From Porphyridium purpureum (lineage: Eukaryota): a DNA stretch of 64,000 nt. Shown in pieces: positions 5,510 to 36,072 of the stretch. The notes under the pieces were generated by a model. That model searched no databases, was not told the origin of the DNA, and saw nothing but the letters and a program-made list of their open reading frames with translations. Position 1 is the stretch's first letter, and every line of letters starts with the position of its first letter. Made by a program: the position numbers and the translations under genes. Location of the stretch: NCBI GenBank assembly GCA_008690995.1, contig VRMN01000003.1:620001-684000 (forward strand), read 5' to 3'.

Positions 5510-6715
5510 TTAAGCCACGCTCGACAGTTTCAGCCCTGCTTCATTCAGAATCTTCGCGAGCTCGCCATCTGCATACATGCGCTTCATATTCTCTGCCGTT
5601 CCCAGGTGCCGCTTTTGGATGAAGACGTTCGGCACCGTCGACTGCTTGGTCAGACGTTCGAGGGCGGCAATCAGATCTGGTGAATCCTCCACTTTGTACT
5701 CTGTGTAGGGAACCGCGAGCTTCGTAAAAATCTGGCGCACCTCTTCACAGAATGGACAACCGCTCTTCGAGAACATCACTATAGAAGACGACGCAATCTT
5801 GTCACGCAGGTCATTATCCGCCCTCTCCAACGCCACTGCATCCTGGCTGATATTGCCCTTGTGCAGGCCACACTCTTTCTGGGTTGCCTCTTCCCACCAC
5901 CAGCGCCCTTCGCGTTCATGCTGATTGGGCAATACTGGCTTCGTGCACGGCTCACAGCCAATCGAGGTGAAGCCACGCAGGTGGAGCGGGTTGTAGGGGA
6001 TCTCTACGATGCGAATCATTGACCAAACGTCCGCAGAAGATGTGTTTGCAAGTGGGTTAAACTTGATCAGGTCCGAGTCGTTCGCTCCTCGGAACGCGGG
6101 ATCCACCTGGCACATGGGTACCTCCGTGCGAGTGCCGGGCGACTGGTCCTTTCGCTGGCCCGTGATCCACGCCTTGAGCGTGCCCAGTTTTTTGCGAAGC
6201 GGACGCACTTTGCGAACGCGGCAGCATTCTTGATGACCGTCCTCGTAAAACGAGAAGAGGCCCTTTTCGTTCACGAGCGCCTCAACCTCACCAGCATCCC
6301 CGTAGCAGTACTCGATCCTGATACCATAATGCTTCTCCACCTCCGCGTAATACCGCAATGTCTCTGCATGTAGCCGGCCGGTCTCGAGGGCAAACACACG
6401 GAAGGGCCGGCCGGTGCGCTGAGCGTATTCGATGAGCACCACGTCCTCCGCCCCCGAAAACGCAATTGCCGCATCCTTGCCAAAGCTCTCCAACGCCTTG
6501 TCCATGACCTCGACGGGGTCAGCGCGCTCCTTGGACCATTTCGCACCCAAAGTGTTCCAATCCTCGGACATGCGCAGAAGCTGAGCCACGGAGGCGCGCC
6601 GAGCGCGGCGCGGAGCCCCGGAGAGCCGCGAACGCGAGCCAATTCTGCTGCAAAGCGCAGTGCGGCGGCTGTAAGCCGGCGCGGTCTCAGCTCCCCCATA
6701 CACGATAAAAGCCAT
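5510..6715 (-). CDS. APR: Adenosine 5'-phosphosulfate reductase (4Fe-4S type) with C-terminal glutaredoxin domain, plastid-targeted
   Basis: [41 protein letters not shown] motifs; C-terminal CPFC...TVPNVF; N-terminal MAF- Arg/Ser-rich transit peptide. Confidence 0.93.
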
Positions 6716-6992: not shown

Positions 6993-9497
6993 ATGGCTGG
7001 CGTTCAGCGTGTAGATGTGCTTCGGACGGGCTTGGAGACGGACGTGCTGGAAGTGATGCCCCTGGGCGCCGGCTGCGAGGTCGGGCGCTCGTGTTGCATC
7101 GTCAAGTTCAAGGGCAAAACGGTCTTGTTTGACTGCGGAGTGCATCCGGCCTACTCTGGCTTGGCCTCGCTGCCGTTTTTCGACGCCATTGAGCCCGATC
7201 AGATTGACCTTGCGCTCATCACTCACTTTCACCTCGACCATTGCGCGGGATTACCATACTTGCTCGAGCGGACAAACTTTAACCCCAAGGCGCGCATTTT
7301 CATGACACATCCAACGAAGGCTATTTACAAGGCGCTTCTCTCCGACTTTGTGCGTGTTTCGCACTCTGGTGGGTCCACAAACGCAAATGCGGCGCTTTAC
7401 AATGAGCAAGATATTGACAGAACCATGGATCGTATAGAAACCGTGGACTATCATCAAGAAATGAATATTGCTGGCATTCGCTTCTGGGCTTATAACGCCG
7501 GCCACGTGCTAGGAGCTGCTATGTTCTTGATTGAAATAGCTGGTGTTCGTGTCTTGTACACCGGCGATTTCAGTCGTCTCGAGGACCGGCACTTGAAGGA
7601 AGCTGAGCTTCCACCTTTCGAAACAGACGTGCTGATTGTAGAGTCCACGTACGGCACTCAAGTGCACGAACCGCGCAAAATTCGGGAGTCTCGCTTCACT
7701 CAAAAAGTCGCCCAGATTGTGCGTCGAGGTGGTAGATGCTTGCTGCCAGTCTTTGCCCTCGGTCGCGCACAAGAACTTCTTCTTATTCTTGACGAATTTT
7801 GGGAAGCGCATCCGGACTTGCAGCATGTCCCAATCTACTATGCCTCCGCCCTCGCAAAGCGCTGCATGAGTGTCTATCTGACGTACATTAACATGATGAA
7901 CGACTCTGTGCGAAAGAGGTACGACGTTTCGAATCCTTTTGCATTCAAATTTGTGTCGAATCTCAAGTCTATTGAGCACTTCAGTGACACAGGACCTTGT
8001 GTGGTCATGGCATCACCCGGTATGTTGCAGAGCGGGCTTTCACGGCAGTTGTGCGAGCGATGGTGTACCGATAAGCGCAACGGCATTCTCTTGTGCGGCT
8101 ATGCCGTGGACGGAACTCTGGCAAAGCACATCATGACGGAACCGGCTTCAATCACGAGACAGGACGGCAAAGAGGTTCCTTTGCGTTGTTCTGTGGATTA
8201 TATCACTTTCTCGGCGCATTCAGACTTCATTCAAACGAAGGGCTTTATAGAAGCCTTGCGACCTAGTAATATCATTCTTGTCCACGGCCAGGTTGATGAG
8301 ATGGGTCGCTTACGGGCTGCCTTAGAAGCAGAGTTCAACAAGCAGGCGAGTGTGACTGCTTTGAAAAACGCAGAGGCATTTATTTCTGCTCCACTATCTT
8401 TGAACGCCGGTGGAGATGTCGCGCAGGTACCAATGACGAGCACTGCTGATCCCCTGGCAACAGGCGAAAAGCCCCAGTCGGATCCATTGACTACGATTGC
8501 CATGAGTGCCGTGGATGGCGCCTTGGGGGGATTGGTTTATATTGTTCCCGCAGGGGCGAAGGATCCTTTGCTTTCATCTGGGCATCCAGCCGACCACCCA
8601 TTGCGAGATATCAGAATCTTTTGCCCGAAGAACACTGAGACCGTGCCGCTAGAGTTTCGTGGTGAAAAAGTGGGCAAGGCTATCAGCGTTCTGCCCAAGC
8701 GCAAGCTTGAAACCGGAATGAGTGTGTCAGGGATGATGATTCGGCAGGACTTTCATCACACTCTTCTGAAGCCAAGTGATTTGCATAGGTACACAAACAT
8801 TAAGGTGTCTAGAATTGGTCAGAGGCAGGTTGTTCCTCTGACCGGCACCTGGGAGGCACTCAAACTTCACTTATGTTCATTGTTTGAAACAGTGGAGGAA
8901 CTCGATGGCAACGACGGATGCCGACCCGGTCTCTTGCTTGCAAATAGGAACATTATTCTGACATGCGTGCCGGAAAAAAGCCAGTCGGCAGTGGAAACTT
9001 CTCAAGGCCCGTCTACTTCTGCCTTTGGTCCTCAGGCGCACGTCATCATCGAGTGGCGGGCAAATTATGCGACTGATATGATCGTGGAAAGTGTTGCGTC
9101 GATGTGTGTCAATGGGTCACTGCAGAATGATAAAATTCATCGCGCTGTTGGGATCGACAAAGTTCCAGTGCTACGGACGAGCGAGAAGAATGACTCGCGC
9201 CAAGTTCTGCCGTCAAATGCGCTCGGCATTACAGACGCGGACCTGAACCAGGCGCTCGAGATTACGCGAAAAATGTTGGCCCAGGTGTTTGGTCCGCTCC
9301 TTGTCAATGAGGACCACGACAAGAAAAGTAAGCTTGTTGTCGATTTTTTCGACGTCGAAATTGACCACGACTCCGGCATGGTAGCATGCGAAGATCCGAA
9401 AGTACGGGACCGTGTCTGGATGGCGCTGCGTCGAATTCATTCTGTTGTGTACCCCATCCCGGACTACTATTGTGATTGTTGTGACTGCGGTGAGTGA
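6993..9497 (+). CDS. CPSF3: Cleavage and polyadenylation specificity factor 73 kDa subunit (Ysh1), metallo-beta-lactamase/beta-CASP endonuclease
   Basis: PLGAGCEVGRSC, THFHLDHC, AGHVLGAAMF, YTGDFSR, ESTYG, ASPGMLQSGLSR, FSAHSD. First in-frame ATG at 6993. Confidence 0.95.
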   Translation: MAGVQRVDVLRTGLETDVLEVMPLGAGCEVGRSCCIVKFKGKTVLFDCGVHPAYSGLASLPFFDAIEPDQIDLALITHFHLDHCAGLPYLLERTNFNPKARIFMTHPTKAIYKALLSDFVRVSHSGGSTNANAALYNEQDIDRTMDRIETVDYHQEMNIAGIRFWAYNAGHVLGAAMFLIEIAGVRVLYTGDFSRLEDRHLKEAELPPFETDVLIVESTYGTQVHEPRKIRESRFTQKVAQIVRRGGRCLLPVFALGRAQELLLILDEFWEAHPDLQHVPIYYASALAKRCMSVYLTYINMMNDSVRKRYDVSNPFAFKFVSNLKSIEHFSDTGPCVVMASPGMLQSGLSRQLCERWCTDKRNGILLCGYAVDGTLAKHIMTEPASITRQDGKEVPLRCSVDYITFSAHSDFIQTKGFIEALRPSNIILVHGQVDEMGRLRAALEAEFNKQASVTALKNAEAFISAPLSLNAGGDVAQVPMTSTADPLATGEKPQSDPLTTIAMSAVDGALGGLVYIVPAGAKDPLLSSGHPADHPLRDIRIFCPKNTETVPLEFRGEKVGKAISVLPKRKLETGMSVSGMMIRQDFHHTLLKPSDLHRYTNIKVSRIGQRQVVPLTGTWEALKLHLCSLFETVEELDGNDGCRPGLLLANRNIILTCVPEKSQSAVETSQGPSTSAFGPQAHVIIEWRANYATDMIVESVASMCVNGSLQNDKIHRAVGIDKVPVLRTSEKNDSRQVLPSNALGITDADLNQALEITRKMLAQVFGPLLVNEDHDKKSKLVVDFFDVEIDHDSGMVACEDPKVRDRVWMALRRIHSVVYPIPDYYCDCCDCGE

Positions 9498-9688
9498 CGG
9501 GAGTCTTCAAGTTCATCCACGTAAACCGAGCATGCACTGGTGAAAATAGTGGTCTACAGGTCAAGCGGGTTCGCTTCAAGTCTTCGGACCCCAGGACCAC
9601 GAGTTATAGAAGTACACCTGAGAGCGTTTACGTTGAGAATGTACTAATAGCGTGCGTTGTGAGCGCCTTCCCCATCTGGGACTAGAGA

Positions 9689-12154
9689 TCAGAAAACGTC
9701 TCCTTTTGAATCGATGGCAATCGGCGGTGCACCCCCGGGCCGTTTTTCAAAAGCAAGCTCTCGTCCAGCGCGCCACGTACCACCTTCTAGGATTTTGGCC
9801 ATCGGCATCACTCTTTCCGTCTTGCCTAGGCGATCCCAGATTTCGATAGCAATCTTGTCGAGCAAGGATACTGTGATAGCTCTCCACTCCACAATAACAG
9901 GATCATCCACAGCAAAAGTCTTCCCAAATACTTCAGCTTCATTCTTTGGAACAAGAAGCTTCGTATCGAGCAGCAAACCACCATTCCTGTATTCCGCCAA
10001 GCCGGTGAGGAGCCACTGATCGACGAAAGTGACGCCTAGCCTCTCCAGAGGTTCAATAAGCGAGTACGTGAGCCACTGGGCAAGCTTGTGAAAAGGAACC
10101 ATGTCCGCATACCCCGGCGCCGAGGATTTATTGAGGCGTACAAGACCATCATGCACGTATGCATCACCCACTCCCAGACCTGAATGATCTGGGAAGACTG
10201 AAGAAAGTCCGTCCATCACTGCCTGCCACAACACCCGAATCGAAACTCGCTGCGAGCTTGAATACGAATGTTTCAAAATGTAATCGACGATATTTCCTGG
10301 TCGAAAAACTCCTGTCGGGGATCCAAAGAACTGAGGCGAATTTTCCAATGCGAGTGCCAGCCTTTGGAGCATTTCATAACGCCCTTCTATGCCCACCAGC
10401 GGATTTCCTTCATTCACCTGAAAACCCAGGCTCAAATCGGAAAGGTGTAGTGAACGTAACCCCATCGAATCCACACGCATCTCACTTTCGCAGGACGAAA
10501 AAGAACCATTTCTGAAAAGATCAAGAGATGCTATGGCCAAACCTTCGCTTCGCGAGAACGTTCGCTCTCCCCATGAATGGTCCGTGTACTTCCAGCCCAA
10601 CCCAGCGCCAGCATCCAGCAAAACAGACACAGTGCACAGGTCCACGTAACGGCGAGTTCTTTCGAGGGCATCGACATTAAATCGTTTCCAACGGGCACTC
10701 AATTCACCGACGCGGTCGATATCTCCAGACTCAAAGTGTCGGAAGCGTGAGTGGCGCGGAATTTGCAAATCTGGATAGTGCCGTTTCATGCAATTCAACA
10801 CTGTACTCACAGTTGTGTCCATCTTTGAACGGTCAATTTCAAACCGGGCAAGCTCATGGTTCTCGGAGGCCAAATCGTGAAGGATCTTGCACCGCTTCCG
10901 TATGGTCTCCAATTTAAACACCTCTCGGCGTTCAGCATTCTCATCAGTCTTGCGGGGCTGGAAGCCCTGGTAACCTGACGAAATCTTCGCGCTGATTTCA
11001 ACGTACGCATCTGCAGGGACCATTTCTTCAGGCAACGACTCACGATTGACCACATGAATACGGCCGCACTCGGTGATTGCTTGGTATTTGTCCTTTGACA
11101 TTGAAAGCAGATAGTCAATTTTCTGGATGCCTAGCCAGTGGTATACATCTGGCATAAGCTCCTGCGCTCGCGCGTCCACCACACCGGCAATCTTTTGCGT
11201 CATTTCAAAGTATGTCTCCGGTCGGTCGCCACCCTCTTGGTAGCGGCGAAGGTTGTAGACTCGGAATTTGGTGACTTCTCCCAGAGCTCGGCCCTCTTTC
11301 GCAAAGTAGGCAATGACGCCGAAACCGTTCTTCTGCGCGGTCTCAACACCATGTTTGATTGCGTGGACAAGATACGGTCGGCAAGAACAAATGGAGGTCT
11401 GAAAGGCGTCAGATCCAGTGCACTGATCATGAGGCCTCGAAGATACGGGACGAGTATTGTCATGGATTGCCGAGAAATCCCCAAAGCAGTAAACTGTGGT
11501 CCCACCCATTTGCGGCAAAAAAACATCATTCGCAGAGTCGAGTACGCCAGGGATCTGGGTCCAGTCAAAAAGAGCTTGCCGCAGTTTCCTTTCGTCCGCC
11601 TGAACTTTTGCTGCAATGGAAGGTATGTGCCAAACTGGATCGATTGCCACCTTAACGCAGTGGATCATGTTGTTTTGATCCACAATGTTTCCATCGGACA
11701 AGAGTTCACCTCGCAGCTCTGGGATATCCATGGATGCCAGCGTGGCCGAGATCGTAGGCCGTATCGCCTCCATCCCGTAAGGATCGAAGCTCGAAATTTT
11801 ACGCCAATTCACGCGAGTACGGGGATCATCCAAATGCGCTTTCAAGGGAGGCACGAGCCATTCTTTCAGATGCGGCTGCGGCTCCCCACGCAGAGACCCA
11901 AGATGCTTACCACCTTTCCTGGATTCAGCAACTGCGTGATAAACCGCATGCGAGCCTCCGTACATGCCGGCGACACCCTCCATTCTTTGCAGTCGGTCGT
12001 GTAACCCCACCCAATCCACGTTCGTCGCATCGCCAGTCTGGCTGGCCGCGGCCAGGGTCGATCTCAGTCTCGCGTGCGGTCGGAATAGCGACGACGGCCC
12101 ACGATGCGCACGCGAGGATGGCAGAGCATGGCGAATGAAAGTCAAATGTGACAT
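9689..12154 (-). CDS. Fusion of GTP cyclohydrolase II-like URC1/Urg1 domain and DUF1688 URC4/Urg3 domain
   Basis: N-half: GGSHAVYHAVA, AIDPVWHIP, RPHDQCTGSDAF..SICSCRPYL, KEGRALGEVTKFRVYN, LMPDVYHWLGI. C-half: PRHSRFRHF, VSVLLDAGAG.GWKY, SRSEGLAIAS, VPFHKLAQWLTYSL, LTGLAEYRNGGL, ILEGGTWRAGR, SKGDVF. First ATG at 12154. Confidence 0.85.
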   Translation of the reverse strand: MSHLTFIRHALPSSRAHRGPSSLFRPHARLRSTLAAASQTGDATNVDWVGLHDRLQRMEGVAGMYGGSHAVYHAVAESRKGGKHLGSLRGEPQPHLKEWLVPPLKAHLDDPRTRVNWRKISSFDPYGMEAIRPTISATLASMDIPELRGELLSDGNIVDQNNMIHCVKVAIDPVWHIPSIAAKVQADERKLRQALFDWTQIPGVLDSANDVFLPQMGGTTVYCFGDFSAIHDNTRPVSSRPHDQCTGSDAFQTSICSCRPYLVHAIKHGVETAQKNGFGVIAYFAKEGRALGEVTKFRVYNLRRYQEGGDRPETYFEMTQKIAGVVDARAQELMPDVYHWLGIQKIDYLLSMSKDKYQAITECGRIHVVNRESLPEEMVPADAYVEISAKISSGYQGFQPRKTDENAERREVFKLETIRKRCKILHDLASENHELARFEIDRSKMDTTVSTVLNCMKRHYPDLQIPRHSRFRHFESGDIDRVGELSARWKRFNVDALERTRRYVDLCTVSVLLDAGAGLGWKYTDHSWGERTFSRSEGLAIASLDLFRNGSFSSCESEMRVDSMGLRSLHLSDLSLGFQVNEGNPLVGIEGRYEMLQRLALALENSPQFFGSPTGVFRPGNIVDYILKHSYSSSQRVSIRVLWQAVMDGLSSVFPDHSGLGVGDAYVHDGLVRLNKSSAPGYADMVPFHKLAQWLTYSLIEPLERLGVTFVDQWLLTGLAEYRNGGLLLDTKLLVPKNEAEVFGKTFAVDDPVIVEWRAITVSLLDKIAIEIWDRLGKTERVMPMAKILEGGTWRAGRELAFEKRPGGAPPIAIDSKGDVF

Positions 12155-12388
12155 CGAGGCTGAGCGCACGGGATGGTTCCTCTTGCGCGCTGACTTGATC
12201 ACGCAAGTACAGACAGGGCGCAGGGCCGCGTTTATGCGAAGTACTGATTTGCAAATTAAGGGCCTAGAGAGGTGCGCGAGATTACTTACACTGTACACAA
12301 ACAACCAATTTAAGTCTACAAATGAGCGCGGCAATTCGGGGCCATTGCCGCAAGACATCAAAGAACTGGCCGATACGGCTCGGCCGTC

Positions 12389-15300
12389 CTAGTCGCTTGA
12401 TTCATCCAACCTCAAAAGGGCACGGCGGCACGTCTCGTACGTGTAAAAACTCACCATCGATACAGGGAACGCCTTCAGAAAATTAGGTATCCAGCCCCGA
12501 TATAGACGGCGCACGCCGTACTCCTTCAGAAGTTCTCGCATTGTAGCACGCATAGAAAGAGGGGCGCGGGCTCCCTTCGAATCGGACATCACAGCAGCTC
12601 TGGCCTCCCAGCCCGCAGCAGCTGACAGCGATTCTGAGGCTGCGGCAGTGCCCCGCAAACCTGCGTTTTGCTGCTGCAAGTACTGATACAAGTGCTGAAC
12701 CTGCATGCATCGCCTGCAAGTGTCCAACGGGTAAGATGCCGCTTGAGCAACAAGAGATGAAACAACTCCGCAGCTTATAGCAAATCCGGGTGTCGGGTGT
12801 CCAGAACCATCGTTCAGCTTGGGCAGCATTGGACGCAACGCTTCGTATGTCGCAAACGACAAACCCACGTACGGGAAGACACCAAGCATTGAGGCAACAA
12901 GGCCATGGTAAAGAGAGCCTGGGCCAAACGCACGACGTGCACCTTTTAGCCCGTCCAAAACACCTCGATGCGGATGGAAGGCGTTCGTTTGGACACTCAA
13001 CCTCGCATGTATTACGTCAATTGGATACGTGATTAGTGTAGCAGCCATGCCGGCGGTTCCAGCCAGGACAATTGACTCCGCCATGGTAGGTCCGCTATTT
13101 CGTAAGGATTGTGCGGACGATGAAACACTGCTCTTCATCAAACCCGTGGATTTGAACACAGAGCTGCCCAGTTCGTACACTAATCGAAATTGATCAACCA
13201 GCAAAAGCTGCAAAAGAGCGGTGGGAATAATCCTCAAAATATTGGCACCATTACCGCGAAAGCCACCGGCAAGAAAAGATCCACGGTCATTTTGAATCAT
13301 CCATCGAAATGTCTGAAAAAGAGTCACGCCTCGAGCGGCTGCTCCTGTTTGCATCAGAATTTTTGCCCGTTCTAGAGGAGCCACGACGCAGCGGGAGACG
13401 ACACCCGCAATGACGACACAAATCAGATGAGATATCTTGCTTCCTGACGAGCGCGAGTCAATTTGTGCAAGTGCTGTCCGGCCGGGCTTTACCCGTGCAA
13501 AGTAATCAGAATTTCGTGTCTGCGCGCCGAGCAACGGATCTCCAACATCATGTAGTCCAGTTCCATGCTCGTAGTCATTTTGCGCTGGGGCTTCGAAGTC
13601 GTGAAGCATGTGCTTCATTAGAAAACGAATATCTTCCACGAAACGTGGCGGTAAAATGTCTTTCGACAGCTGACAGAATTCCTTGTACTGAATGACACGT
13701 TGCCCATCCTTGCCAAAAGCACGCTCACGGAGTTTTCGTGACTTTTGATCCGTATCATTCAATAATTCTTGTGCATGCTCATCTATCTCAGCGTAGTCAT
13801 TGAGTAACGACTGAAACTCTTCAAAGTCGACAAACCCAGAGTTGTTGCGGTCCATCAGCCGAAATGCAAATTGTAGCTCGGCATTTGGTTGGTTCAGCAA
13901 AATGTCAAAACGAACAAACTCCCAGAAGTCAAGCAACAAGTCGTCAACTTCCTCGTCAAGAAAATCATGGCGGTTCCCGGTCACTAGCATTAAGAGCAAG
14001 GCCTCGATTCGACGTTTCTTCGGATTCGGAATATCTAGGCTCTCAATATTCGCGAAGCGAAGGAAGTCACGCCCTGTCATCATCTTCAATTCCGCAGAAT
14101 CGCTACCTGGAACACGATTAGGTCGTGAAACGGACGCATACTGATTAAACACAGCCTTCAAATACTGAGTACCACCACCTAGACACAGCTGATGGAAACT
14201 TTCCGTGTTGATGGCCCAACACTCCACATCGGTGCGGGCACGTACGGTTGCAGCTCGTGGTACATCATACATAAGACTAAGTTCGCCGAAGGATGCTCCT
14301 GGTCCCAAGGTTGTCACAAGATTCTCTGTTAGCGCAGAGTCACGATTGGGAGCAATTTCAGTTTTGCGTTTCCGCTGGGAATTTTTCTTCGGGTCCGACT
14401 TCTCGTTGATCAGCTTGGGGTGCGAGACCAACCTCTCTACTTCACCACTTTTGATGATGAAGAAGTTCTCTCCCCGGTCACCCTGCGAAAAGATAACGTC
14501 TCCGGCGCGAAAGGTGACTGGGAAGAAAGCATCAACTTCACGTGGTCCGATCCTATCCATATTTCGAAAAAGAAAATGGTTTTTGATGAGCTCCCGAAGC
14601 TCTCGGCGATCAAGTCGTGCGTAGACTTTGCCGGCGTCACTGCCCGCATCACGAAGCTTCTCGAAAGTTGGTCGATCCACGGTCCACAAGAGGCTCGGCT
14701 CGACGGCACGAACTGTTCCCGTGCGCGGCACGTTGAAGGAGAAAGCAGTCATTCCACAGGACGTGCCTGGGCCTAACGTAGTTACAAGTGTCGGCTGACC
14801 GCGCTCTCCACCTTGTGCATAGCTTTTGTCGATGAATCGCTCCAGGCGCCCGCTTTCCACGATAAAGAAGGAGTCTCCGTAATCACCCTGATGGAAAACC
14901 ACATCACCAGGATTCAGAATAACCGCGCGAAAGCTTTTGATCAAATGGGCGCGCTTGTACTCGTCCGTGATGCTCGACGAAATAGGGGTTCGCTTCAAGA
15001 CCTCCCGAATTGTGTGGCGCGACTCACGGCTTGGCGAATCCCCGGCCTTGACACCGTTCAACTCTGATATCTTTGCATGCCGAACTTTGATGGGCTCCTT
15101 ATTACGGCGTGGCCACAGCCACTGACTAATATCCTCCTCACTGTCTTTTTTCTCCCGTTTGTTGGACGCCACGCTGCCTGCCTCTCCAGCTTTACGAAAG
15201 TGGAAGCTTTGGTCCTTGATGAATATTTCTTCCGAAAGACGCGCTCCGCGGAGCAAATGAACTCCCGGAGGATTCGTTTGCTCACTTGAAAAGTCCTTGG

Positions 15301-16075
15301 GGTTGTACCCAGCAGCGGGCGGGTAAGTTTCGAGCAGTCCTAAACGCTGATACGCAGCTGCTACAAGTTCTGAGCAAAACACCTTGGACAGATCGTCGAC
15401 AGCCTCGAAAACATCTGCGTGGGCCCGCTTAATTTCCTCTTCCAGGCGGATCTGAATAACAGCCACTGCGCCCGCCACTCGCTTGCGCTCCGATTCCAGA
15501 GAACGCCTCTGGAACAAAGTCAGAGCCGCCTCCTCTAGTTCGCGGTTAATCTCTCGCAATTGAGCCTTTTTCTCTAACAGCAGAGCATGCATGCGTTCGC
15601 GCTCCTGCTTCCCTAAGGGGTCAATCACGCTTTTGATCATCGTGCCGGCCGCAGACTCGTATGGGGTACCCAGCATTTCATTGGCAAAATCAAACAAGGC
15701 TCTCCGATCTCGATCGGAGCGCACGATGTTCAGACGACGAACTGCCACTTCATTGGACTTTGAGCGTGCCACACGCTCGGCTAGGCTGCGCAGTTTGACA
15801 CCACCGAAATCCGCTTCCAGAAAGAGGAGTTCACCAGTGTCCGGGTGCTTGACAACCATACCCACGTGATCCCAGCGAGAATTAGACACCATCTTGGCGG
15901 CGGCGCACACAAGCATTGCATAAATTTTCATTTTCCGGCACGAGCGGTTGAAGAGCACGACATCACCCGAGTCTAACCCAGCGGGTAGCTGCGCCGCGCC
16001 GATAGGCACTGGGATTGCTGTATTGGATCCATCGCTTTCGGAAGGGGAGCGCTGGTGACCTTCAGCAGCAGACAT
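12389..16075 (-). CDS. Multidomain protein: permuted NlpC/P60 (YiiX-like) + 2 cNMP-binding + EF-hand domain + mitochondrial carrier (SLC25)
   Basis: GDVVLF...WDHVGMV and FCSELVAAAY; GDVVFHQGDYGDSFFIVESG..PRTGTV; GDVIFSQGDRGENFFIIKSG..FGELSLMYDVPRAATV; EF loop DRNNSGFVDFEEF; three Px[D/E]xx[K/R]-type carrier motifs (PLERAK, PIDVIH, PLDTCR). One uninterrupted ORF. Confidence 0.88.
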   Translation of the reverse strand: MSAAEGHQRSPSESDGSNTAIPVPIGAAQLPAGLDSGDVVLFNRSCRKMKIYAMLVCAAAKMVSNSRWDHVGMVVKHPDTGELLFLEADFGGVKLRSLAERVARSKSNEVAVRRLNIVRSDRDRRALFDFANEMLGTPYESAAGTMIKSVIDPLGKQERERMHALLLEKKAQLREINRELEEAALTLFQRRSLESERKRVAGAVAVIQIRLEEEIKRAHADVFEAVDDLSKVFCSELVAAAYQRLGLLETYPPAAGYNPKDFSSEQTNPPGVHLLRGARLSEEIFIKDQSFHFRKAGEAGSVASNKREKKDSEEDISQWLWPRRNKEPIKVRHAKISELNGVKAGDSPSRESRHTIREVLKRTPISSSITDEYKRAHLIKSFRAVILNPGDVVFHQGDYGDSFFIVESGRLERFIDKSYAQGGERGQPTLVTTLGPGTSCGMTAFSFNVPRTGTVRAVEPSLLWTVDRPTFEKLRDAGSDAGKVYARLDRRELRELIKNHFLFRNMDRIGPREVDAFFPVTFRAGDVIFSQGDRGENFFIIKSGEVERLVSHPKLINEKSDPKKNSQRKRKTEIAPNRDSALTENLVTTLGPGASFGELSLMYDVPRAATVRARTDVECWAINTESFHQLCLGGGTQYLKAVFNQYASVSRPNRVPGSDSAELKMMTGRDFLRFANIESLDIPNPKKRRIEALLLMLVTGNRHDFLDEEVDDLLLDFWEFVRFDILLNQPNAELQFAFRLMDRNNSGFVDFEEFQSLLNDYAEIDEHAQELLNDTDQKSRKLRERAFGKDGQRVIQYKEFCQLSKDILPPRFVEDIRFLMKHMLHDFEAPAQNDYEHGTGLHDVGDPLLGAQTRNSDYFARVKPGRTALAQIDSRSSGSKISHLICVVIAGVVSRCVVAPLERAKILMQTGAAARGVTLFQTFRWMIQNDRGSFLAGGFRGNGANILRIIPTALLQLLLVDQFRLVYELGSSVFKSTGLMKSSVSSSAQSLRNSGPTMAESIVLAGTAGMAATLITYPIDVIHARLSVQTNAFHPHRGVLDGLKGARRAFGPGSLYHGLVASMLGVFPYVGLSFATYEALRPMLPKLNDGSGHPTPGFAISCGVVSSLVAQAASYPLDTCRRCMQVQHLYQYLQQQNAGLRGTAAASESLSAAAGWEARAAVMSDSKGARAPLSMRATMRELLKEYGVRRLYRGWIPNFLKAFPVSMVSFYTYETCRRALLRLDESSD

Positions 16076-16446
16076 TGCCACCCGATAGCGCCGCGCGACA
16101 GCGTCTCGCCCTCACTCTTACTCGTAGACCTTCGAAAGGTCGAATTCAGCGATTCCAATGATCCAGTCTCGCGCGAGTGAGTACAGTACCAAAATTCAGA
16201 ACTGAACCTTCTATCCTCGTCATCATGTGTCCGTTCCGCCGAATGTGCCCCGGCAAGGACAGTCAAGGTTGCGGACGAAGCCAGCTCTAGTTTCCGCGGA
16301 AACAACAGCCAAGCAACACCCGAATCCTCAACGGGTGCGGTCGCCTTGGCCCGCTGTGTATCTTGCAGTATCTGATTACTTCTGTACGTCCCATCTGCCC
16401 GTCGCCAGCGCGCAAGCCATCTCAGCTTTCGGTTAGAGACCAAGAG

Positions 16447-16872
16447 ATGGCGCACCAAGTCAAAATAGTTGTGCGCGGGACTGTGCAGGGCGTATTCTTT
16501 CGCGATGAAACAGTGAACAAGGTGGCAGAGATTAATGGTGGTCAGAACAAAGTCGTGGGGTGTGTGCGCAACATGGCAGACGGCTCCGTGTATATTTGCG
16601 CCCTGAGCGAGGACAAGAGCGCGCTGGAGGAACTCTCGGCATGGGCTCACCATGGCCCGGAACGCGCAAAGGTGAAGAAGATTGAGGAGGAATGGACTTT
16701 TGTAAGGGACACGTCCAAGTACTCGGACTTCACGAAGCTGAGAGGCTTGTACGCGGATCGTGCACAGAAGCATTTGTATAGTGCTCTTGCAGAGGATGGC
16801 ACCGAAGGTCCAGAGCAGCTCACGCCCGACAGCGGTGTCGAGACAATCAACTCGCCGGCTGTTGAAGGGTAG
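16447..16872 (+). CDS. Acylphosphatase
   Basis: VRGTVQGVFFR phosphate loop and GCVRNMADGSV motif, WAHHGPERAKV; ATG at 16447. Confidence 0.9.
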   Translation: MAHQVKIVVRGTVQGVFFRDETVNKVAEINGGQNKVVGCVRNMADGSVYICALSEDKSALEELSAWAHHGPERAKVKKIEEEWTFVRDTSKYSDFTKLRGLYADRAQKHLYSALAEDGTEGPEQLTPDSGVETINSPAVEG

Positions 16873-17045
16873 GCTTTGACCTGGTCAAGCGAAGGTTTAT
16901 CATCATTTACTTGTCTTCCTTTTTCTCCATAGAAGCGCTACGATTGAACGTGACCGCATTCGGAAAACGGCCGCTCCTTTCAATCTTTCAACGTATACCT
17001 TCTCAATACATATGTACTCCACATTGATCAATGGTTGACAAAGAT

Positions 17046-18995
17046 TTAAAGACTCAGGATTGATGTGTCTTGTGCAATGTGCTTTCCTGTCCGGGCAGCA
17101 CGCTTCTCCATGAGAAACTTGTCGCGCTGACGACTCGCTTCGCGAGCCAATAACTCCTCACGCTCCAATTCCCTGAATCGATCACGAGTTTGGCACGTCT
17201 CACACGTACACGCTTTTTCATGATCGCTGGCAGCCTCCTCCACACACGTCGACAAGTCCTTCAAACTCTTCAAGCGGCCGTGCGAAAGAAATTCATCACG
17301 AAGACGCATCATTTCCGATCGTTCCATTTCTTCAATCTCCATCTTCCGAAAAAGGCTCACCAGCTTTTCGGTTTCAGGAGTGGCGCCGTACGCCGCCGAC
17401 GTCGTGACTGCTTCCGACTCGACAGCTTTCTCGTCCGACACTGCTTCAATATTTTGGGACGAATGGGGCTGCTCTTTCCTGACAGTTTCAAGCACCCTCT
17501 GCAAAAAGGATGGTGTCGTGCGCTCGCAATCGTCTCCACAAGGCGTTTCTTCCGTGTTTTCATGTTCCTCATCAAAAGTCGCCGTGAGCTCCAAGTTTTC
17601 CGATGGTTCTCCGGTACTTCCAGCTGCAGGTGCGTTCGCATAGTAATTACCTGACGCAGCCTCGTCCAGCATTTCCTGGGCCTGTCTTGGTGCGGATCCG
17701 GAGGCTTTCTCCCATGTTTCAGCTTCAGCTTCGAAAGCAGCTATCGTCTCTTCCTTTGCATTTGAAGGGTGGACTGCATTGTCGACTTGCTCACCATTCT
17801 CAGAGTCTTCATCAATATTCCCTGGCAATAACGCCAAACCAAATAATTCAGCTGCACGCTCAACCTGCGGCAATACTTTCGATGAATTTCCGGTGTTTTC
17901 GCGGGATAACACTAGCGGGTCGGATGACTCTGTGATGGCCCTAGGCGACTGCGGCAGGACCGGAAGAACTTGTTGAGGTTCGGGAGAAAACAATCCTTCT
18001 CCATTTGGTTCGGGCTTCTCAGCAACAACATCCGCCTCCTCTGAAACCGGCTCAGCTTTCTGCTCTACTTCACCAGACTCTTCCTCTTTCGGTTCAAGCT
18101 CGGCGGTCTCGTCAAAAGGAAGAGAGACTTGCTTCGCGTCATTAACAATGTCCACCAGCGCGTTTTCGGGCGTTCCTAGTTCAACGCTCCTTTCCGCAGT
18201 CATTTCCTCAATTGCACTTGTCGATATTTTCGGCTCAGACACTTTTCCCGGAACAGCAGCAGAAGCTCCCGAGTCCAGGCAAGCATTAGTATTCGCATTT
18301 CCCAACCCTTCTGCGGTCTGTCTCTCGGGAGCTGCCGGCGCTAGAAGAGTTTTCCAATCGCGCAGGATCATGGAAGTGTGCTTAAAATCCTCACTACTGT
18401 TTCTCTTCCTTTCGCACGGTACGTCGCCGAGGTCCCTCGGAGACTTGGCCTCTGGTGTGATCGCCTCGAGTTCGCCCTTGGCTACAACAGGGGACACGTT
18501 ATCGTACAAATCAACCGGCGTTGCGCCCTTCGACAGTGTAGATTTGGCATGCACAATGTCACCCTGAAACGCAGATGCACCTAAGAGGTCTGACGGTTCG
18601 ATCTCATGCTCTTTGGAGATACTCAGCGGCGAGCGCTCAGCGTCTTCCAGGTGCACCGTATCAGAAAACATGGCTTTGGCGGCGTCCATTGCAGTTTCAA
18701 CGACAGACTCCTCCCCCGGTTCAATCCTCCCTGACAAAGACCCTCGCCCATGATTGACTTTTTGCGTTGTGTCATCGCTTGAGGCAAACTTGCTGTTCCC
18801 ACCCTTGCGCCTGCCCAGGAAAGGAACCAAGTTCCGAACTCTCTTGCCCGAGTTCTCGCGGGTCACGGCGCTGTGGAGCGCGTGGTCCTGATCAGCCGCT
18901 GAAGGCGGAGGAAGCTCATCCCCATGTGTCTCTTCGACCCTGCCAGTGCTGCTGGTGCGCTGGCCGAGAAAGAGCGTCTTGATCCTCTGCATCAT
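17046..18995 (-). CDS. Acidic, largely disordered hypothetical protein
   Basis: 649-aa ATG-started ORF rich in E/S/A/P; short C-terminal helical segment with CTCETC. Confidence 0.7.
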   Translation of the reverse strand: MMQRIKTLFLGQRTSSTGRVEETHGDELPPPSAADQDHALHSAVTRENSGKRVRNLVPFLGRRKGGNSKFASSDDTTQKVNHGRGSLSGRIEPGEESVVETAMDAAKAMFSDTVHLEDAERSPLSISKEHEIEPSDLLGASAFQGDIVHAKSTLSKGATPVDLYDNVSPVVAKGELEAITPEAKSPRDLGDVPCERKRNSSEDFKHTSMILRDWKTLLAPAAPERQTAEGLGNANTNACLDSGASAAVPGKVSEPKISTSAIEEMTAERSVELGTPENALVDIVNDAKQVSLPFDETAELEPKEEESGEVEQKAEPVSEEADVVAEKPEPNGEGLFSPEPQQVLPVLPQSPRAITESSDPLVLSRENTGNSSKVLPQVERAAELFGLALLPGNIDEDSENGEQVDNAVHPSNAKEETIAAFEAEAETWEKASGSAPRQAQEMLDEAASGNYYANAPAAGSTGEPSENLELTATFDEEHENTEETPCGDDCERTTPSFLQRVLETVRKEQPHSSQNIEAVSDEKAVESEAVTTSAAYGATPETEKLVSLFRKMEIEEMERSEMMRLRDEFLSHGRLKSLKDLSTCVEEAASDHEKACTCETCQTRDRFRELEREELLAREASRQRDKFLMEKRAARTGKHIAQDTSILSL

Positions 18996-28224: not shown

Positions 28225-31101
28225 CTATCTCGAATTTTCAAGACAAGCAACACCCAATAAGGTTTTGCATTTCAAAAACATTTCTCGAGGAACCACTTTG
28301 GTTAGGAAATCTGCTGCCTGATCTGATGTGCGAATGTAAATAGCCTTGACTATTCCCCGTTGCTGACATTCGCGAGCATAGTGCTTTCTCACGTCAATGT
28401 GCTTCGACCTTTCGTGCACAATCGGGTTCTCACTCAGTTTCAGTGCAGCATCATTGTCACAAAACATTGGAATCGATTTCGACTTGAATCCTAGGAATTC
28501 CATGAGATATTGAAACCACTGGGCTTCTTTACATGCATCCGAGAGAGCCATGTACTCTGCTTCGGTTGTGGACAGCGCCACAGTTGGTTGTAGCCTGGAT
28601 TTCCAGGAGACAACTGATCCATTGATCGTGAAAGCATATCCGGTGGTTGACCTTCGCGTTCGAAGATCACTAGCATAGTCTGAATCAACGTAACCAATTA
28701 GGTCGGAGTTGCCATTTGAGCTAAATTGGAGACCATAATTTATGGTTCCTTTAAGATATCGCAGCACTCCCTTTGCCGCATTCCAATGGGATTCATTGGC
28801 ATTTGCCATTGATCGTGCAAGCACTCCCACGGCGAAGGAAATATCCGGACGCGTGCAAGTGCACAAATACATTAGTGCTCCCACGAGTTCCATGTAAGGC
28901 ATCTTGCATGGTTCTGCAGTAGCAGTATACCACTTCGTATCCTTTTCCATGGGAAGCTTCCTTGGATTCGCCGATTCCATTCCGAACCTTTCCAGGATGG
29001 TTTGGACATACAAGCTTTGATTAAGTCTGATAATGCCATTCCTTTGATCATAATCAAGAGTGTAGCCGGCAAATTTTTGCTTGACCACTTGCCCAAGATC
29101 CCTGACTTCAAACTTGCCTTGCAAATGCAGAAGCACTTCATTTGAAGTAACTTCGTCTTCACCTATGAAGACCAAGTCATCGACGTAAATCATGATATAC
29201 GGACCATTTGGACCCTTAGAAAACAGACAAGGATCTGCCGTACTTTCGGAAAAATTGATTTCTTTAAGTGCTTGCACAAGAACTTGATTCCAAGCTCGAG
29301 ATGCCTGCTTCAATCCATAGATTGCTTTACGCAGTTTCAGGACTTTTCCTCCTTCATGTACGAATCCAGGAGGCTGTTCCATGAAAATTTCTTCATGAAG
29401 TTCTCCATTGAGAAACGCAGTCACCACATCGAAAAGTCGAATTTTCAACTTTCTTGCAGCTGCTACTGCCAGGACCGTTCGAATAGTGTTGTGTCGCACA
29501 ACAGGGCTGAACACTTCGTCGTAGTCCAAACCAGGTTTCTGAGTGAAACCTTTTGCGACAAGTCGACACTTGAACCGATCAATTTGTCCGTTGACATTAT
29601 ATTTGATCTTAAAAACCCATTTGCATCTGACAGGAATTCGGTCCTGTGGACGATCGACGAGCTCCCACGTGCAGTTGCCAGTGAGAGATTCCAATTCTCT
29701 ATTCAGAGCTTCCAGCCATTGCTCAGAGAAGTCACCCTTTAGTGCTTCTTCGACTGACCGAGGTTCAGAAACGGTGGAAATTATTCCAACGAATTGATTT
29801 GCGACATATCCACTGTCTTGACTTTCGTCATCCTCAGTATTCCCAAAGTTTCCATTTGGAGCTTTTTGGAACCCTAAATCTTTCGAATTATTCTGAACTT
29901 TTTCCAGAAACGTTTCTCCGATTTCATTTGAAATAGAATATTCCTGACTGCGATCATCCATTTGTCGAGTGGAATCTGTTTCAAAATTTTTTGACGCGAT
30001 TTGAGACTTTTCATCAAACGACTTCGAGAAATCTTTTGGAAACAACTCTTCGACAATTTTATCGAAGTTGGAAAAATATTCCGAATCGTGGATTTCATGT
30101 TCATGAACATCTATTCCAACGACAGACTCATCGAAAGTGACATTTCGACTTTCAACGACCGTGCCATCCGATAGAAGAATGCGATAAACGGAATGGACAT
30201 TTCCATAACCGACCAAGCATCCAATTGCAGATCTTGTTTCTAGTTTTCCTCGCAATTGCTTAGGAATATGAACAAACGCTCTCGATCCGTAGATTCTGAG
30301 ATTGCTGAGATCTGGCCTTTGCCTGAATGCAATTTCTATCGGCGTTTTCCCGCGATTATTTGAAATGCGATTTCGCAAATAATTCGCAGTCAACAAAGCA
30401 TTACTCCAATTTTCCAAAGGTAGATTACTATCAAACAATAAGCTTCGAACCTTTTCGAGTAATGTCCGATTCATGCGTTCAGCCATACCATTAAGTTCTG
30501 GCGTGTAAGCAGAGGTATTTTCCCAAGTAATTCCAGAGTCTTGGAGATGCCTTTGCACATAAAGGCTTGCGAATTCGCCACCTTTGTCGGACCGAACTCT
30601 TTTTGCCTTTGCACCAAGAGTCGTTTCGAGATATTTAAGTGTGCGCAGTAACATTTCACCCGCTTCACTTTTTCGCTCGAGCAAGTGGACGACACTCAAA
30701 CTTGAGCATTCGTCGACGACAACTAGAAAATATCGATGGTCGTCAAAACTCGAAGGAGTGAGTGGTCCGCATACATCAGTATGAAGGACTTCTCCCGGAA
30801 CCGCCGAAATGGAATTCAATTTCCGCTTCTTAAAGGGAGTTCGTGTTCCCTTTGCCTTTTGGCAAATCACACAATGGTATTCATCCGGAACTTTTAAGTC
30901 CGCGGGAATTCCCTGTACACAATTTTGCGTATTTTTCAGACCAGCAAGTCCAGGATGACCAAGTCGACGGTGAAATAGCTCAAACTTATTTGAAGCTGTG
31001 ATTGCATTTATTCTAGCGGCGGATAGTTTGATCATTAAATCACCATCCCCAACCGCTAGGACGGGCCCATCTGACCCAAAATGCAAAACAGATGAACTAT
31101 C
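28225..31101 (-). pseudogene. Detached integrase-RT-RNase H portion of the outer copia pol
   Basis: Translation identical to the C-terminal ~950 aa of the inner polyprotein; separated from its gag by the inner element. Confidence 0.93.
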
Positions 31102-31426
31102 TGTTATGAATCCAGGGTTTCGGTAGATTCCCTCCCCAGGTAAAGTAGTAATACCATGGGGAATGTTTCAGCTCCAACTTTCTGTATTTCTCCAACTTTC
31201 TGTATTTCTCCAACTTATAGTAAATAAGGGTTTTTGCCCTGGAGGTACAGTTGGCAATCTCACTAGTGAAAGCACTACGATTGCCTATATGAAGAGCTTA
31301 GCGATGGCCGAGGCTCGGAGTCCCCGGATGACGAAGGTAAGGTTAGTTGCAAGGGCGACGAAGGGGACACGCAACTGCGTTAGTGACAAGTCACAAAGAC
31401 TCCCCGATACATCAGACCTTTTAATA
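31102..31426 (+). repeat. 5' LTR of inner copia copy
   Basis: 325 bp, TG...TA; contains an 18-bp tandem repeat (ctccaactttctgtattt, ~2.4 copies). Confidence 0.97.
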
Positions 31427-31440
31427 GGTTATGAGCCCAG
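31427..31440 (+). promoter_or_regulatory. Primer binding site complementary to the anticodon arm of initiator tRNA-Met (half-tRNA priming, Ty5/copia hemivirus type)
   Basis: GGTTATGAGCCCAG directly after the LTR; its reverse complement CTGGGCTCATAACC is the iMet anticodon stem-loop. Confidence 0.88.
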
Positions 31441-34400
31441 ACGCGATGGCGTTTACGTTTGATGCGTCGAAGCTGTCCGCGCTTGCGAACGGCGTGGAAA
31501 AGTTCAATGGCGAGAATTACGACATTTGGGCACGCCGCACGAAGCTCGCGTTGCGTGTGGTGAAGCTGTGGCCCGTCGTTGCGGGGATGGTCGTTCGCCC
31601 ATCGTCGTCGTCGCGTGCAACTACCGGGATGACGGCAGAAGAGTGGGACGATGCGGACCTGGCGGGACAGTTCTTTCTGTCCGGGGTCTTGGAGAACAGG
31701 TACGACCGTCTCGTCCGCGATAAGTCGTCGGCGGACGGTTGGTCCGCGGTGGCGAATTATGCGCACGATCAACTGTCGGCGCAGAAGTTCGCGTTTCGCA
31801 TGGCGCTGGAGCGCATTGTCCAGAACAAGAACGAGGCAATGGCCGAGTACTTGGATCGCGGAATCGGTCTGTGGGACAAGCTTGTCTCGATCGGTGAGCA
31901 AGTTCCCGAGGACCATGTCGTGCGTTATCTGGTGATCGGGCTCCGCAAAGAGTTTCAGGGGTCGAAGGACTACCTGCTGCATTCGGCGCCCACGGTCTCC
32001 GCAGCTCGGCTGCAACTGCTCCAGCTGGAGGCCGGAAAAGCGCTCGAGCGCACGTTGGCAGATGAGCCCCCGCCCATCGCAATGGCGGTGTCCCAGCGTC
32101 CGCAGCAACAGCAGCGTGATCGCTCAGCGGGTGTCGTGAAGACGGCACTCGTCAAGGAGAACCTGAAGTGTGGCTACTGCCACAAGGTTGGGCACGAGAC
32201 GAAGCGTTGCTTTAAGCGCAAGAATGACTTGCGCGACAAGGCTGCTGGTGCGAGTGGCGCAGCAGACCCGGAGGCAGTGAAACGCGGCATCGGAAAGCCG
32301 AATGCGCGGGTGAATGTGGTTCAGGTAAAAACCAAGGTGACGAAACCACCGGCTCCGGCGGCAAAGGCAGCCATTGAGCCAGGTTGGATGTCGTGGGAGG
32401 CCTACGCGAATAGCGTTGCGGGAAGGGGCGTGGTGCCAAAAGGCCCTTCTCTGGATATCCGCATGATTAGCCCCCCAGCGACCCCTGCACCAATCAATAA
32501 AGCCACCACTTCCATCTATGCCATCTGTGTCTCTGTTGTGCCCCACAAGCACAAGTCGCACAAATGGATGTTCGATTCTGGATCGGACAGACATATCACT
32601 TGGGATAGGTCTATTCTAATGAATGAAAGACCTTCTGATGAATCACTTGTTACTGTTGCCAACGGGGAACATGTTGAAGTTTCATTGATGGGTGATGTCA
32701 TGCTCAAAACAATTATTCAAGACAAGTTTAATGACTTGCGTCTTGAAAATGTTTTGTTGATCGAAAGCACACCCATAAATCTCCTTTCGACAAAGGTCGC
32801 AGCGAGAAAGGGCTGTGTCTTCAAACACGATGATAGTTCATCTGTTTTGCATTTTGGGTCAGATGGGCCCGTCCTAGCGGTTGGGGATGGTGATTTAATG
32901 ATCAAACTATCCGCCGCTAGAATAAATGCAATCACAGCTTCAAATAAGTTTGAGCTATTTCACCGTCGACTTGGTCATCCTGGACTTGCTGGTCTGAAAA
33001 ATACGCAAAATTGTGTACAGGGAATTCCCGCGGACTTAAAAGTTCCGGATGAATACCATTGTGTGATTTGCCAAAAGGCAAAGGGAACACGAACTCCCTT
33101 TAAGAAGCGGAAATTGAATTCCATTTCGGCGGTTCCGGGAGAAGTCCTTCATACTGATGTATGCGGACCACTCACTCCTTCGAGTTTTGACGACCATCGA
33201 TATTTTCTAGTTGTCGTCGACGAATGCTCAAGTTTGAGTGTCGTCCACTTGCTCGAGCGAAAAAGTGAAGCGGGTGAAATGTTACTGCGCACACTTAAAT
33301 ATCTCGAAACGACTCTTGGTGCAAAGGCAAAAAGAGTTCGGTCCGACAAAGGTGGCGAATTCGCAAGCCTTTATGTGCAAAGGCATCTCCAAGACTCTGG
33401 AATTACTTGGGAAAATACCTCTGCTTACACGCCAGAACTTAATGGTATGGCTGAACGCATGAATCGGACATTACTCGAAAAGGTTCGAAGCTTATTGTTT
33501 GATAGTAATCTACCTTTGGAAAATTGGAGTAATGCTTTGTTGACTGCGAATTATTTGCGAAATCGCATTTCAAATAATCGCGGGAAAACGCCGATAGAAA
33601 TTGCATTCAGGCAAAGGCCAGATCTCAGCAATCTCAGAATCTACGGATCGAGAGCGTTTGTTCATATTCCTAAGCAATTGCGAGGAAAACTAGAAACAAG
33701 ATCTGCAATTGGATGCTTGGTCGGTTATGGAAATGTCCATTCCGTTTATCGCATTCTTCTATCGGATGGCACGGTCGTTGAAAGTCGAAATGTCACTTTC
33801 GATGAGTCTGTCGTTGGAATAGATGTTCATGAACATGAAATCCACGATTCGGAATATTTTTCCAACTTCGATAAAATTGTCGAAGAGTTGTTTCCAAAAG
33901 ATTTCTCGAAGTCGTTTGATGAAAAGTCTCAAATCGCGTCAAAAAATTTTGAAACAGATTCCACTCGACAAATGGATGATCGCAGTCAGGAATATTCTAT
34001 TTCAAATGAAATCGGAGAAACGTTTCTGGAAAAAGTTCAGAATAATTCGAAAGATTTAGGGTTCCAAAAAGCTCCAAATGGAAACTTTGGGAATACTGAG
34101 GATGACGAAAGTCAAGACAGTGGATATGTCGCAAATCAATTCGTTGGAATAATTTCCACCGTTTCTGAACCTCGGTCAGTCGAAGAAGCACTAAAGGGTG
34201 ACTTCTCTGAGCAATGGCTGGAAGCTCTGAATAGAGAATTGGAATCTCTCACTGGCAACTGCACGTGGGAGCTCGTCGATCGTCCACAGGACCGAATTCC
34301 TGTCAGATGCAAATGGGTTTTTAAGATCAAATATAATGTCAACGGACAAATTGATCGGTTCAAGTGTCGACTTGTCGCAAAAGGTTTCACTCAGAAACCT

Positions 34401-35708: not shown

Positions 35709-35747
35709 AGGTGGAAGGCATGACGAAAAGTTGTCGCTGCGTGGGAG

Positions 35748-36072
35748 TGTTATGAATCCAGGGTTTCGGTAGATTCCCTCCCCAGGTAAAGTAGTAATAC
35801 CATGGGGAATGTTTCAGCTCCAACTTTCTGTATTTCTCCAACTTTCTGTATTTCTCCAACTTATAGTAAATAAGGGTTTTTGCCCTGGAGGTACAGTTGG
35901 CAATCTCACTAGTGAAAGCACTACGATTGCCTATATGAAGAGCTTAGCGATGGCCGAGGCTCGGAGTCCCCGGATGACGAAGGTAAGGTTAGTTGCAAGG
36001 GCGACGAAGGGGACACGCAACTGCGTTAGTGACAAGTCACAAAGACTCCCCGATACATCAGACCTTTTAATA
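35748..36072 (+). repeat. 3' LTR of inner copia copy
   Basis: Matches 31102-31426; preceded by the short purine-rich tract GTGGGAG. Confidence 0.97.

Follow-up and report, generated by a model that had tools for sequence, protein, structure and literature searches.

In a 64,000-nucleotide stretch of the Porphyridium purpureum genome (contig VRMN01000003.1, positions 620,001 to 684,000; hereafter the window, in whose numbering all coordinates are given), a single-exon gene on the minus strand at 12389..16075 encodes a protein of 1,228 amino acids. As established by translation, Pfam and RNA, it joins a papain-like enzyme domain of the YaeF/YiiX type (C92), a coiled coil, two cyclic-nucleotide-binding domains (CNB-A and CNB-B), an EF-hand lobe and an SLC25 carrier. 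Compared across its homologues, this architecture is an old SLC25 family without functional characterisation. The reading of the protein that we favour, with slightly less than even confidence, is an exchanger of adenine nucleotides (ADNT1-like, AMP/ADP/ATP) gated by cyclic AMP (cAMP) and Ca2+, with a lipid-acyl thiol enzyme attached. With a little more reserve, we propose that an ancient SLC25 subfamily may be an effector on which cAMP acts directly, at the mitochondrial membrane: gating by cAMP and Ca2+ would be kinase-free, through a portable cassette of two CNBs and a MICU-type lobe, and one branch would be coupled to a lipid-acyl enzyme. To our knowledge, regulated SLC25 carriers respond to Ca2+ via EF-hands only.

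One gene, one unspliced transcript

A first-pass annotation of the window had described a stop-free open reading frame (ORF) holding four types of domain. Translation of 12389-16075 (-) confirmed the 1,228-residue ORF, and a Pfam scan found Peptidase_C92 (4.6e-10), cNMP_binding (cyclic nucleoside monophosphate, cNMP; 6e-38), EF-hand_1 (1.8e-8) and, in three stretches, Mito_carr (1.4e-48), all four above their own curated cut-offs and at positions that agree with those first given. NCBI models present the locus otherwise. Residues 1-1,207 are identical to a P. purpureum record of 1,989 amino acids, 'Uracil catabolism protein 4', in which a 417-base intron joins the ORF to the next gene and deletes the last carrier helix; this is the intron at 12038..12454 (-) assumed by model KAA8495512.1, which fuses the gene to its downstream Urc1/Urc4-like neighbor. 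A second NCBI record joins the same two genes at another position.

That two models merge the ORF with the downstream gene is the argument for reading it as an annotation or assembly artefact, either several distinct genes or a portion of the 1,989-residue protein. The RNA speaks against this. Each of the three stranded raw-read runs, all from one study, had coverage of the expected strand in all 30 bins of 9300-17000, and no splice joint was seen in the gene region in the runs covering that interval; the assumed intron is likewise unseen. A gap-free RNA contig from a different study spans 12326-16082. At finer scale, depth falls to 0 at 12110-12150 in two of two raw runs, and contigs break between the two genes in two further studies, bringing the studies with split contigs to three. 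Contig ends at 12326, 12263 and 12239, with depth reaching 0 by 12110-12150, place the 3' untranslated end at approximately 12240..12388 (-). Among the read variants listed in the ORF, 13 of 19 are synonymous. Since the joints of the two models differ, one of them removes a carrier helix, and homologues stop after the carrier, fusion with the Urc1/Urc4-like gene was rejected. The fused NCBI models are a gene-model error and the ORF is one unspliced transcript; for the conditions sampled the artefact reading is refuted, and we give it virtually no weight. The P. purpureum record thus carries a wrong name, owing to a false gene fusion.

Conservation of the whole design was examined in an alignment. 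The first search returned 56 matches, 45 of them full-length homologues at 41-51% identity; these plus the query form the set (n=46) to which all counts out of 46 refer. The remaining matches, namely the fused record, three incomplete proteins and seven that were distant or unrelated, are not in the set. Homologues in this number speak against a chance reading frame. Named close homologues are red algae (Rhodosorus, Galdieria, Gracilariopsis and Chondrus).

The carrier and its sensor arm

The three-repeat carrier of the first-pass annotation, at 12416..13438 (-), is borne out by the three Mito_carr stretches and by a six-helix model that matches UCP1 (Z 28.5 over 277 residues) and the ADP/ATP carrier (Z 23.7). 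Helices 1, 3 and 5 bear the Px[DE]xx[KR] motifs of SLC25 as PLERAK, PIDVIH and PLDTCR. Between 42 and 46 of the 46 sequences retain the gate and contact residues, among them the transport residues Arg895 (45/46), Lys905 (46/46), Arg948 (46/46), Gly1065 (45/46), Asp1118 with Arg1121 (45/46) and Lys1201 (45/46). No cleavable presequence or peroxisomal targeting signal type 1 is evident in the protein termini, as is usual for carriers (PMC12343136). A sub-branch of five members (P0233, P0095, P0091, P0232 and P0235) has Ile where an acidic residue is expected in the first carrier motif (PLIR.K), an unusual matrix gate.

Motifs and profile scores place the carrier closest to ADNT1 (Arabidopsis At4g01100). 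It has the ADNT1-like signature of G-[IVLM] at contact point 2, a mark of adenine binding in carriers (PMC12343136), together with Arg/Lys phosphate contacts and the third motif RR.MQ; the motifs SR..VAP.ER.K and G[VI].PY.G are shared as well. Profile bits are 266-275 for ADNT1-labelled sequences, 139-225 for ATP-Mg/Pi carriers (APC/SCaMC, SLC25A23-25) and 127-132 for the aspartate/glutamate carriers aralar and citrin (AGC, SLC25A12/13), making ADNT1 the most similar of the named subfamilies. BLAST ranked the enzyme-less relatives described below first, then ADNT1-labelled sequences, then APC, with AGC far behind; the top rank holds for six of seven fused queries, the Phytophthora query finding ADNT1 first, and with the Galdieria query a fungal sequence stood above ADNT1. 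The fused carriers group together in a 55-row tree (SH-aLRT 97) and, for 12 of 13, in a 36-row tree (91/86); of 70 rows, these trees left out 15 and 34, respectively, as redundant, partial or long-branched. In the 36-row tree fused and enzyme-less carriers unite (93/91), and an ADNT1/McfB-like group, whose reference labels are automatic, is sister to them without nesting (91/84), while APC stands apart (96/93). In that sister group we presume YPR011c and SLC25A43 to belong. ADNT1 exchanges AMP for ATP (PMC7408384) and SLC25A43-type carriers transport ATP (PMC12343136). ADNT1-labelled proteins have about 330-360 residues and no sensor domain, whereas the P. purpureum protein has an added arm of 880 residues, and the carriers of its family form a branch of their own next to the ADNT1 clade.

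Membership of the two Ca2+-regulated subfamilies was rejected. Against aralar stand GVFPY in place of the RDIPF/RDVPF of three of three AGC references (G-V instead of R-D at contact point 2) and the low profile bits; against APC/SCaMC, the lack of APESA.K and PL...RT..Q, an EF lobe that scores only 7-26 bits with APC-type proteins, and the separate clade. On this evidence the carrier is ADNT1-like, presumably for adenine nucleotides, and neither aralar nor APC. The Rhodosorus transcript P0165 (352 amino acids) encodes a short carrier, which clusters with the clade of enzyme-less CNB proteins and is either a stand-alone paralogue or a truncated transcript.

Directly ahead of the carrier lies a four-EF lobe of MICU/aralar type at 13598..14170 (-), recognised by sequence matches and profile scores, in which a single loop, at 13817-13852, is canonical. 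Among solved structures the lobe matches Dictyostelium MICU (PDB 9K6M) best, at E 2.4e-9, or 9.7e-19 with the Chromosphaera lobe; against citrin (4p5w) E is 2.7e-6. The Dictyostelium MICU N-lobe has the order EFa-EFb-EF1-EF2 (PMC12095637), and the canonical loop here, residues 742-753, aligns to EF1, so that by sequence alone the lobe has the layout of a MICU N-lobe with a canonical EF1. EFb is degenerate, replaced by a variable insert, in the red-algal form and intact in many enzyme-less members. Unlike MICU, the protein has no C-lobe and is not a stand-alone subunit: it is fused to a carrier that follows the first lobe directly. The lobe family profile gives 56-103 bits for four AGC-type proteins versus 7-26, as partial matches, for eight APC-type ones, and with about 190 residues the lobe matches AGC up to residue ~170-226, short of an eight-EF domain. 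The canonical loop lies, as we take it, one position later than the aralar Ca2+ site. MICU and aralar are themselves related (bioRxiv 2020.03.24.006015). Hence the aralar-type Ca2+ domain of the first-pass annotation holds insofar as the lobe is homologous to the first lobe of aralar/citrin and likewise precedes an SLC25 carrier; it does not hold in that there is one lobe with one canonical loop, and its best solved match is MICU. The EF lobe was missing from the top 50 fold matches of the model. After the lobe, residues 811-828 (13592..13645 (-)) form an amphipathic helix (hydrophobic moment 0.55, the 97th percentile of the protein's windows), a candidate gating helix.

Upstream of the lobe, two cNMP sensors had been proposed. 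Both domains score, CNB-A at 14642..15043 (-) by Pfam, conservation and fold match, and CNB-B at 14177..14617 (-) by conservation, alignment to protein kinase A (PKA) and the model, yet CNB-A is not canonical: its phosphate cassette keeps Arg451 in 46/46 and Glu in 0/46, although some enzyme-less members have the Glu. CNB-B has a canonical FGEL..PRAAT cassette (14246-14290), with FGEL, Glu598 and Arg607 invariant (46/46). The residue after Arg607 is Ala in 26, Ser in 11, Gly in 9 and Thr in none of the 46 sequences. In PKA and its cGMP-dependent counterpart PKG, Ala, Ser or Gly rather than Thr at this position favours cAMP, and because Thr is never found, CNB-B is probably of cAMP type; CNB-B alone of the two looks like a working sensor. 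In Chromosphaera and P0233, from the wider search, the CNB-B Arg is followed by Thr, as in domains of cGMP type. The best sequence match of the tandem CNBs is PKA RI-alpha (E 3.5e-28), whose C-helix aligns to residues ~635-646, the start of the MICU/aralar lobe; CNB-B and the EF lobe would therefore share a helix, the last of CNB-B, which offers a structural basis for coupling. The tandem fold is that of a PKA regulatory subunit, but CNB-A lacks Glu and Pfam finds neither an RIIa docking domain (at E 0.1) nor a kinase domain. A CNB of SLC9C1 is among the fold matches, on an unrelated transporter fold; with SLC9C1 there is a known case of a transporter controlled by cAMP.

The C92 enzyme and the range of the family

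Residues 30-288 (15212..15988 (-)) form a permuted papain-like C92 domain, as indicated by Pfam, conservation, a model of 272 residues with a predicted local distance difference test score of 90, and fold matches. Among 48,161 chains two matches are clear, BcPPNE of B. cereus (3kw0, Z 16.1) and YiiX of E. coli (2if6, Z 15.8), with a root-mean-square deviation of 2.7 A; by sequence the C92 part matches PDB weakly (YiiX, E 0.31), and GroEL matches arise from the coiled coil. The catalytic tetrad of YiiX/BcPPNE is defined as Cys/His/Glu plus Tyr (PMC3142127). Here His70 in DHVG (15866-15868), Glu87 (15815-15817), Tyr139 (15659-15661) and Cys234 in FCSEL (15374-15376), all on the minus strand and invariant in 46/46, have the residues and the His-before-Cys order of that definition, and the intact permuted NlpC/P60 site of the first-pass annotation stands. 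So does the insert said to split its His and Cys halves: a two-helix coiled-coil hairpin of 78 residues (151-228; 15392..15625 (-)), defined by DSSP of the model, retained in distant members and with generic fold matches (Z 9-10). The hairpin, two extra conserved Cys and the fusion to sensors and carrier set the protein apart from YiiX and BcPPNE.

YiiX binds a fatty acid, and for these closest C92 structures, with their hydrophobic S1 pocket, action on acyl-amides by cleavage has been proposed (PMC3142127). The enzyme is likely active in the P. purpureum protein. In a wider set, counted without two truncated members, the C92 domain is complete in 30; His and Cys are retained in 25 of these, and 5/30 have lost Cys or the His/Cys pair; together with the enzyme-less forms, this indicates that the enzyme is not required by every member. 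Cys46 (38/46, the remainder gaps) and Cys57 (45/46), at 15905-15940 (-), are kept even where the catalytic Cys is lost and are possibly a disulfide or metal site; three members without the catalytic Cys carry an extra CxxC. P0056, a metagenome protein joining a PX domain and C92, was the sole non-carrier C92 match of the first search, its PX domain pointing to membranes.

The range was extended by a profile search of 1.84 billion representatives, custom domain profiles and Pfam on 24 chosen proteins. The C92-CNB-carrier form was also found in Cyanidium, Chlorokybus, Mesostigma, Lagenidium, Phytophthora, Achlya and Papus, and in a 5'-truncated Euglena member; overall, proteins with all the domains come from red algae, Mesostigma/Chlorokybus, oomycetes and Discoba. 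An enzyme-less form (CNB-CNB-EF-carrier) occurs in Chromosphaera (ichthyosporeans), whose protein has 744 amino acids, in Plasmodiophora and in a species that we take, from its Clim gene prefix, to be Corallochytrium. In the ESM Atlas, two matching clusters with 66 and 59 eukaryotic members, commonest in oomycetes and diatoms and the second scoring 0.83, are a lead only. No animal, fungal or land-plant name appeared among the matches listed for the cNMP-plus-carrier architecture, which does not prove absence. P0104, a Logan cluster of 3, carries the CNB-CNB-EF-lobe cassette (85 bits), but its carrier has APC motifs; the 55-row tree puts it with APC and the 36-row tree leaves it ungrouped. P0104 is possibly a second host of a portable cassette, or a chimeric assembly.

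The protein had been put forward as undescribed. We found no functional study of it in the literature, most subscription papers and other supplements lying outside the scope, so that an earlier mention is possible. The pairing of cNMP domain and carrier was, however, listed for Phytophthora (Ps132772/Pr79657) by Morris et al. 2009, as one row of Table S1 with no C92 or EF noted, among 273 proteins given as oomycete novelties; a term search of the main text did not find it (PMC2705460). Occurrence across supergroups overturns the listing as an oomycete novelty.

A gating model and its alternatives

In all SLC25 carriers the N-terminus is on the cytosol-facing side, where the 880-residue arm would also lie. 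In the model that we favour, cAMP would bind CNB-B, CNB-A being structural or a weak binder, and, the last helix of CNB-B being the first of the EF lobe, binding would shift the lobe. The lobe, with Ca2+ at its one site, would then move the amphipathic helix ahead of transmembrane helix 1 and open the carrier. ATP-Mg/Pi carriers are a precedent for such opening, and they too have a Ca2+-type domain and an amphipathic helix before an adenine-nucleotide carrier. They are likely a working analogy, but their EF domain is calmodulin-like, their motifs and clade are others, and they have no cNMP input. The core unit would be CNB-CNB-EF-carrier, for which the enzyme-less forms of Chromosphaera, Corallochytrium and Plasmodiophora count; the enzyme would be an added module transferring or removing lipid acyl groups at the same membrane. 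We place the protein among the regulated SLC25 carriers, as a form to which a cNMP input and an enzyme module have been added; it would work by analogy with APC and aralar and belongs to neither. As the proposed cAMP effector, the subfamily would span red algae, early streptophytes, stramenopiles, Rhizaria, Discoba and unicellular animal relatives, with none seen in animals, fungi or land plants among the matches listed.

Several observations weigh against this model. The loop fits the canonical EF pattern in 34 of 46 sequences and has Glu12 in 28, and it is lost in oomycete members; the Euglena member lacks Glu in both cassettes. Chrysoparadoxa and one further record (P0114, P0126) join enzyme and carrier without sensors, though these may be incomplete models. 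At position 1023, P. purpureum has His (4/46) in place of Arg (42/46). Tree support is below the starred level and the names of the reference sequences were assigned automatically; branches are longer for fused than for enzyme-less carriers; and an approximately unbiased (AU) test did not reject a tree that places AGC next to the fused clade (p-AU 0.217), which we read as a tree root left open. The full-length structure model (predicted template-modelling score 0.49) does not settle domain packing or contacts. With the whole model, Foldseek gave cNMP proteins only among the matches listed. Complex prediction for C92-hairpin (26-290) and CNB-CNB-EF (345-826), run with the alignment not used, scored 0.00 and weighs neither way.

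Part of this evidence would suit a protein in which cAMP and Ca2+ control a YiiX-type acyl hydrolase or transferase, and the carrier is mainly an anchor or transports little. Conservation is highest in the C92 halves (mean top-residue frequency 0.78 vs 0.62-0.70 in carrier repeats), sensor-less enzyme-carrier forms are known, and fused carriers evolve faster, with the helix-1 Arg lost in Papus, Chlorokybus and Mesostigma. We nevertheless consider this unlikely: at least three named lineages have sensors and carrier as a unit that lacks the enzyme, five of the 30 complete C92 domains lack Cys or the His/Cys pair, and carrier gate and contact residues are retained. The sensor-less forms would also fit a carrier that supplies coenzyme A (CoA), phosphoadenosine phosphate or its phosphosulfate (PAP/PAPS) or a related adenine-containing cofactor to the tethered enzyme. 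ADNT1, CoA and PAPS carriers are neighbours within SLC25, fungal sequences of the sister group presumably resemble yeast YPR011c, an adenosine phosphosulfate (APS)/PAPS carrier, and Joint Genome Institute (JGI) labels on relatives read SLC25A23/24/25/41 or A42. As motifs and scores are nearest to ADNT1-labelled sequences, we hold this supply role to be quite improbable; the sole COAC2-labelled reference aligned badly and makes a weak comparison.

An adenine-type site and a cAMP-type sensor on one chain, and the preference of ADNT1 for AMP (PMC7408384), would also suit a carrier that moves cAMP, or the AMP formed from it, while sensing what it transports, a cAMP route over the inner membrane. 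Its contact residues are those of linear-nucleotide carriers and the sequence has no cyclic-substrate feature, and we regard cAMP transport as very unlikely. Self-processing, raised in the first-pass annotation, gets marginally less credence still. Cleavage of the chain by C92, releasing the carrier or the sensor arm, would make use of the intact Cys/His site and of a 50-residue low-confidence linker ahead of the carrier, and could ease the difficult import of an 880-residue arm. The linker, however, has no invariant residue, the remaining architecture persists in members whose enzyme is catalytically dead or absent, and the hydrophobic S1 pocket of the closest structures is proposed for acyl-amides (PMC3142127). 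We thus find no support for it.

If the exchanger model holds, the cNMP site on the carrier chain itself would link cAMP, kinase-free, to the organelle adenine-nucleotide pool, and cAMP access to mitochondrial metabolism in protists becomes directly testable. The MICU-type lobe would be a candidate Ca2+ input in red algae, of which three genomes are reported without the uniporter complex (bioRxiv 2020.03.24.006015). The YiiX enzymes, for which few substrates are known, gain a eukaryotic member in a fixed membrane context.

Several neighbouring features of the window were noted. The downstream gene at 9689-12154 (-) fuses GTP-cyclohydrolase-II-like and DUF1688 parts, and from its NCBI record name we take it to be Urc1/Urc4-like; its RNA contigs end at 12181-12229, and its start is thus likely ATG 12154 (821 amino acids), not 12358. 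At 9497-9900 its transcript (-) and a CPSF73-like one (+) overlap at their 3' ends, with reads in both orientations at 9557-10070. On the other side, a highly expressed acylphosphatase gene (16291-16872 (+)) is divergent from the carrier gene, followed by an acidic ORF of 649 amino acids without a Pfam match (17046-18995 (-)). An APS-reductase-like domain is fused to glutaredoxin at 5510-6715 (-). At 28225-37478 (-), three head-to-tail, near-identical retrotransposon ORFs, one full and two partial and from their motifs presumably copia-type, represent a tandem insertion or an assembly duplication.

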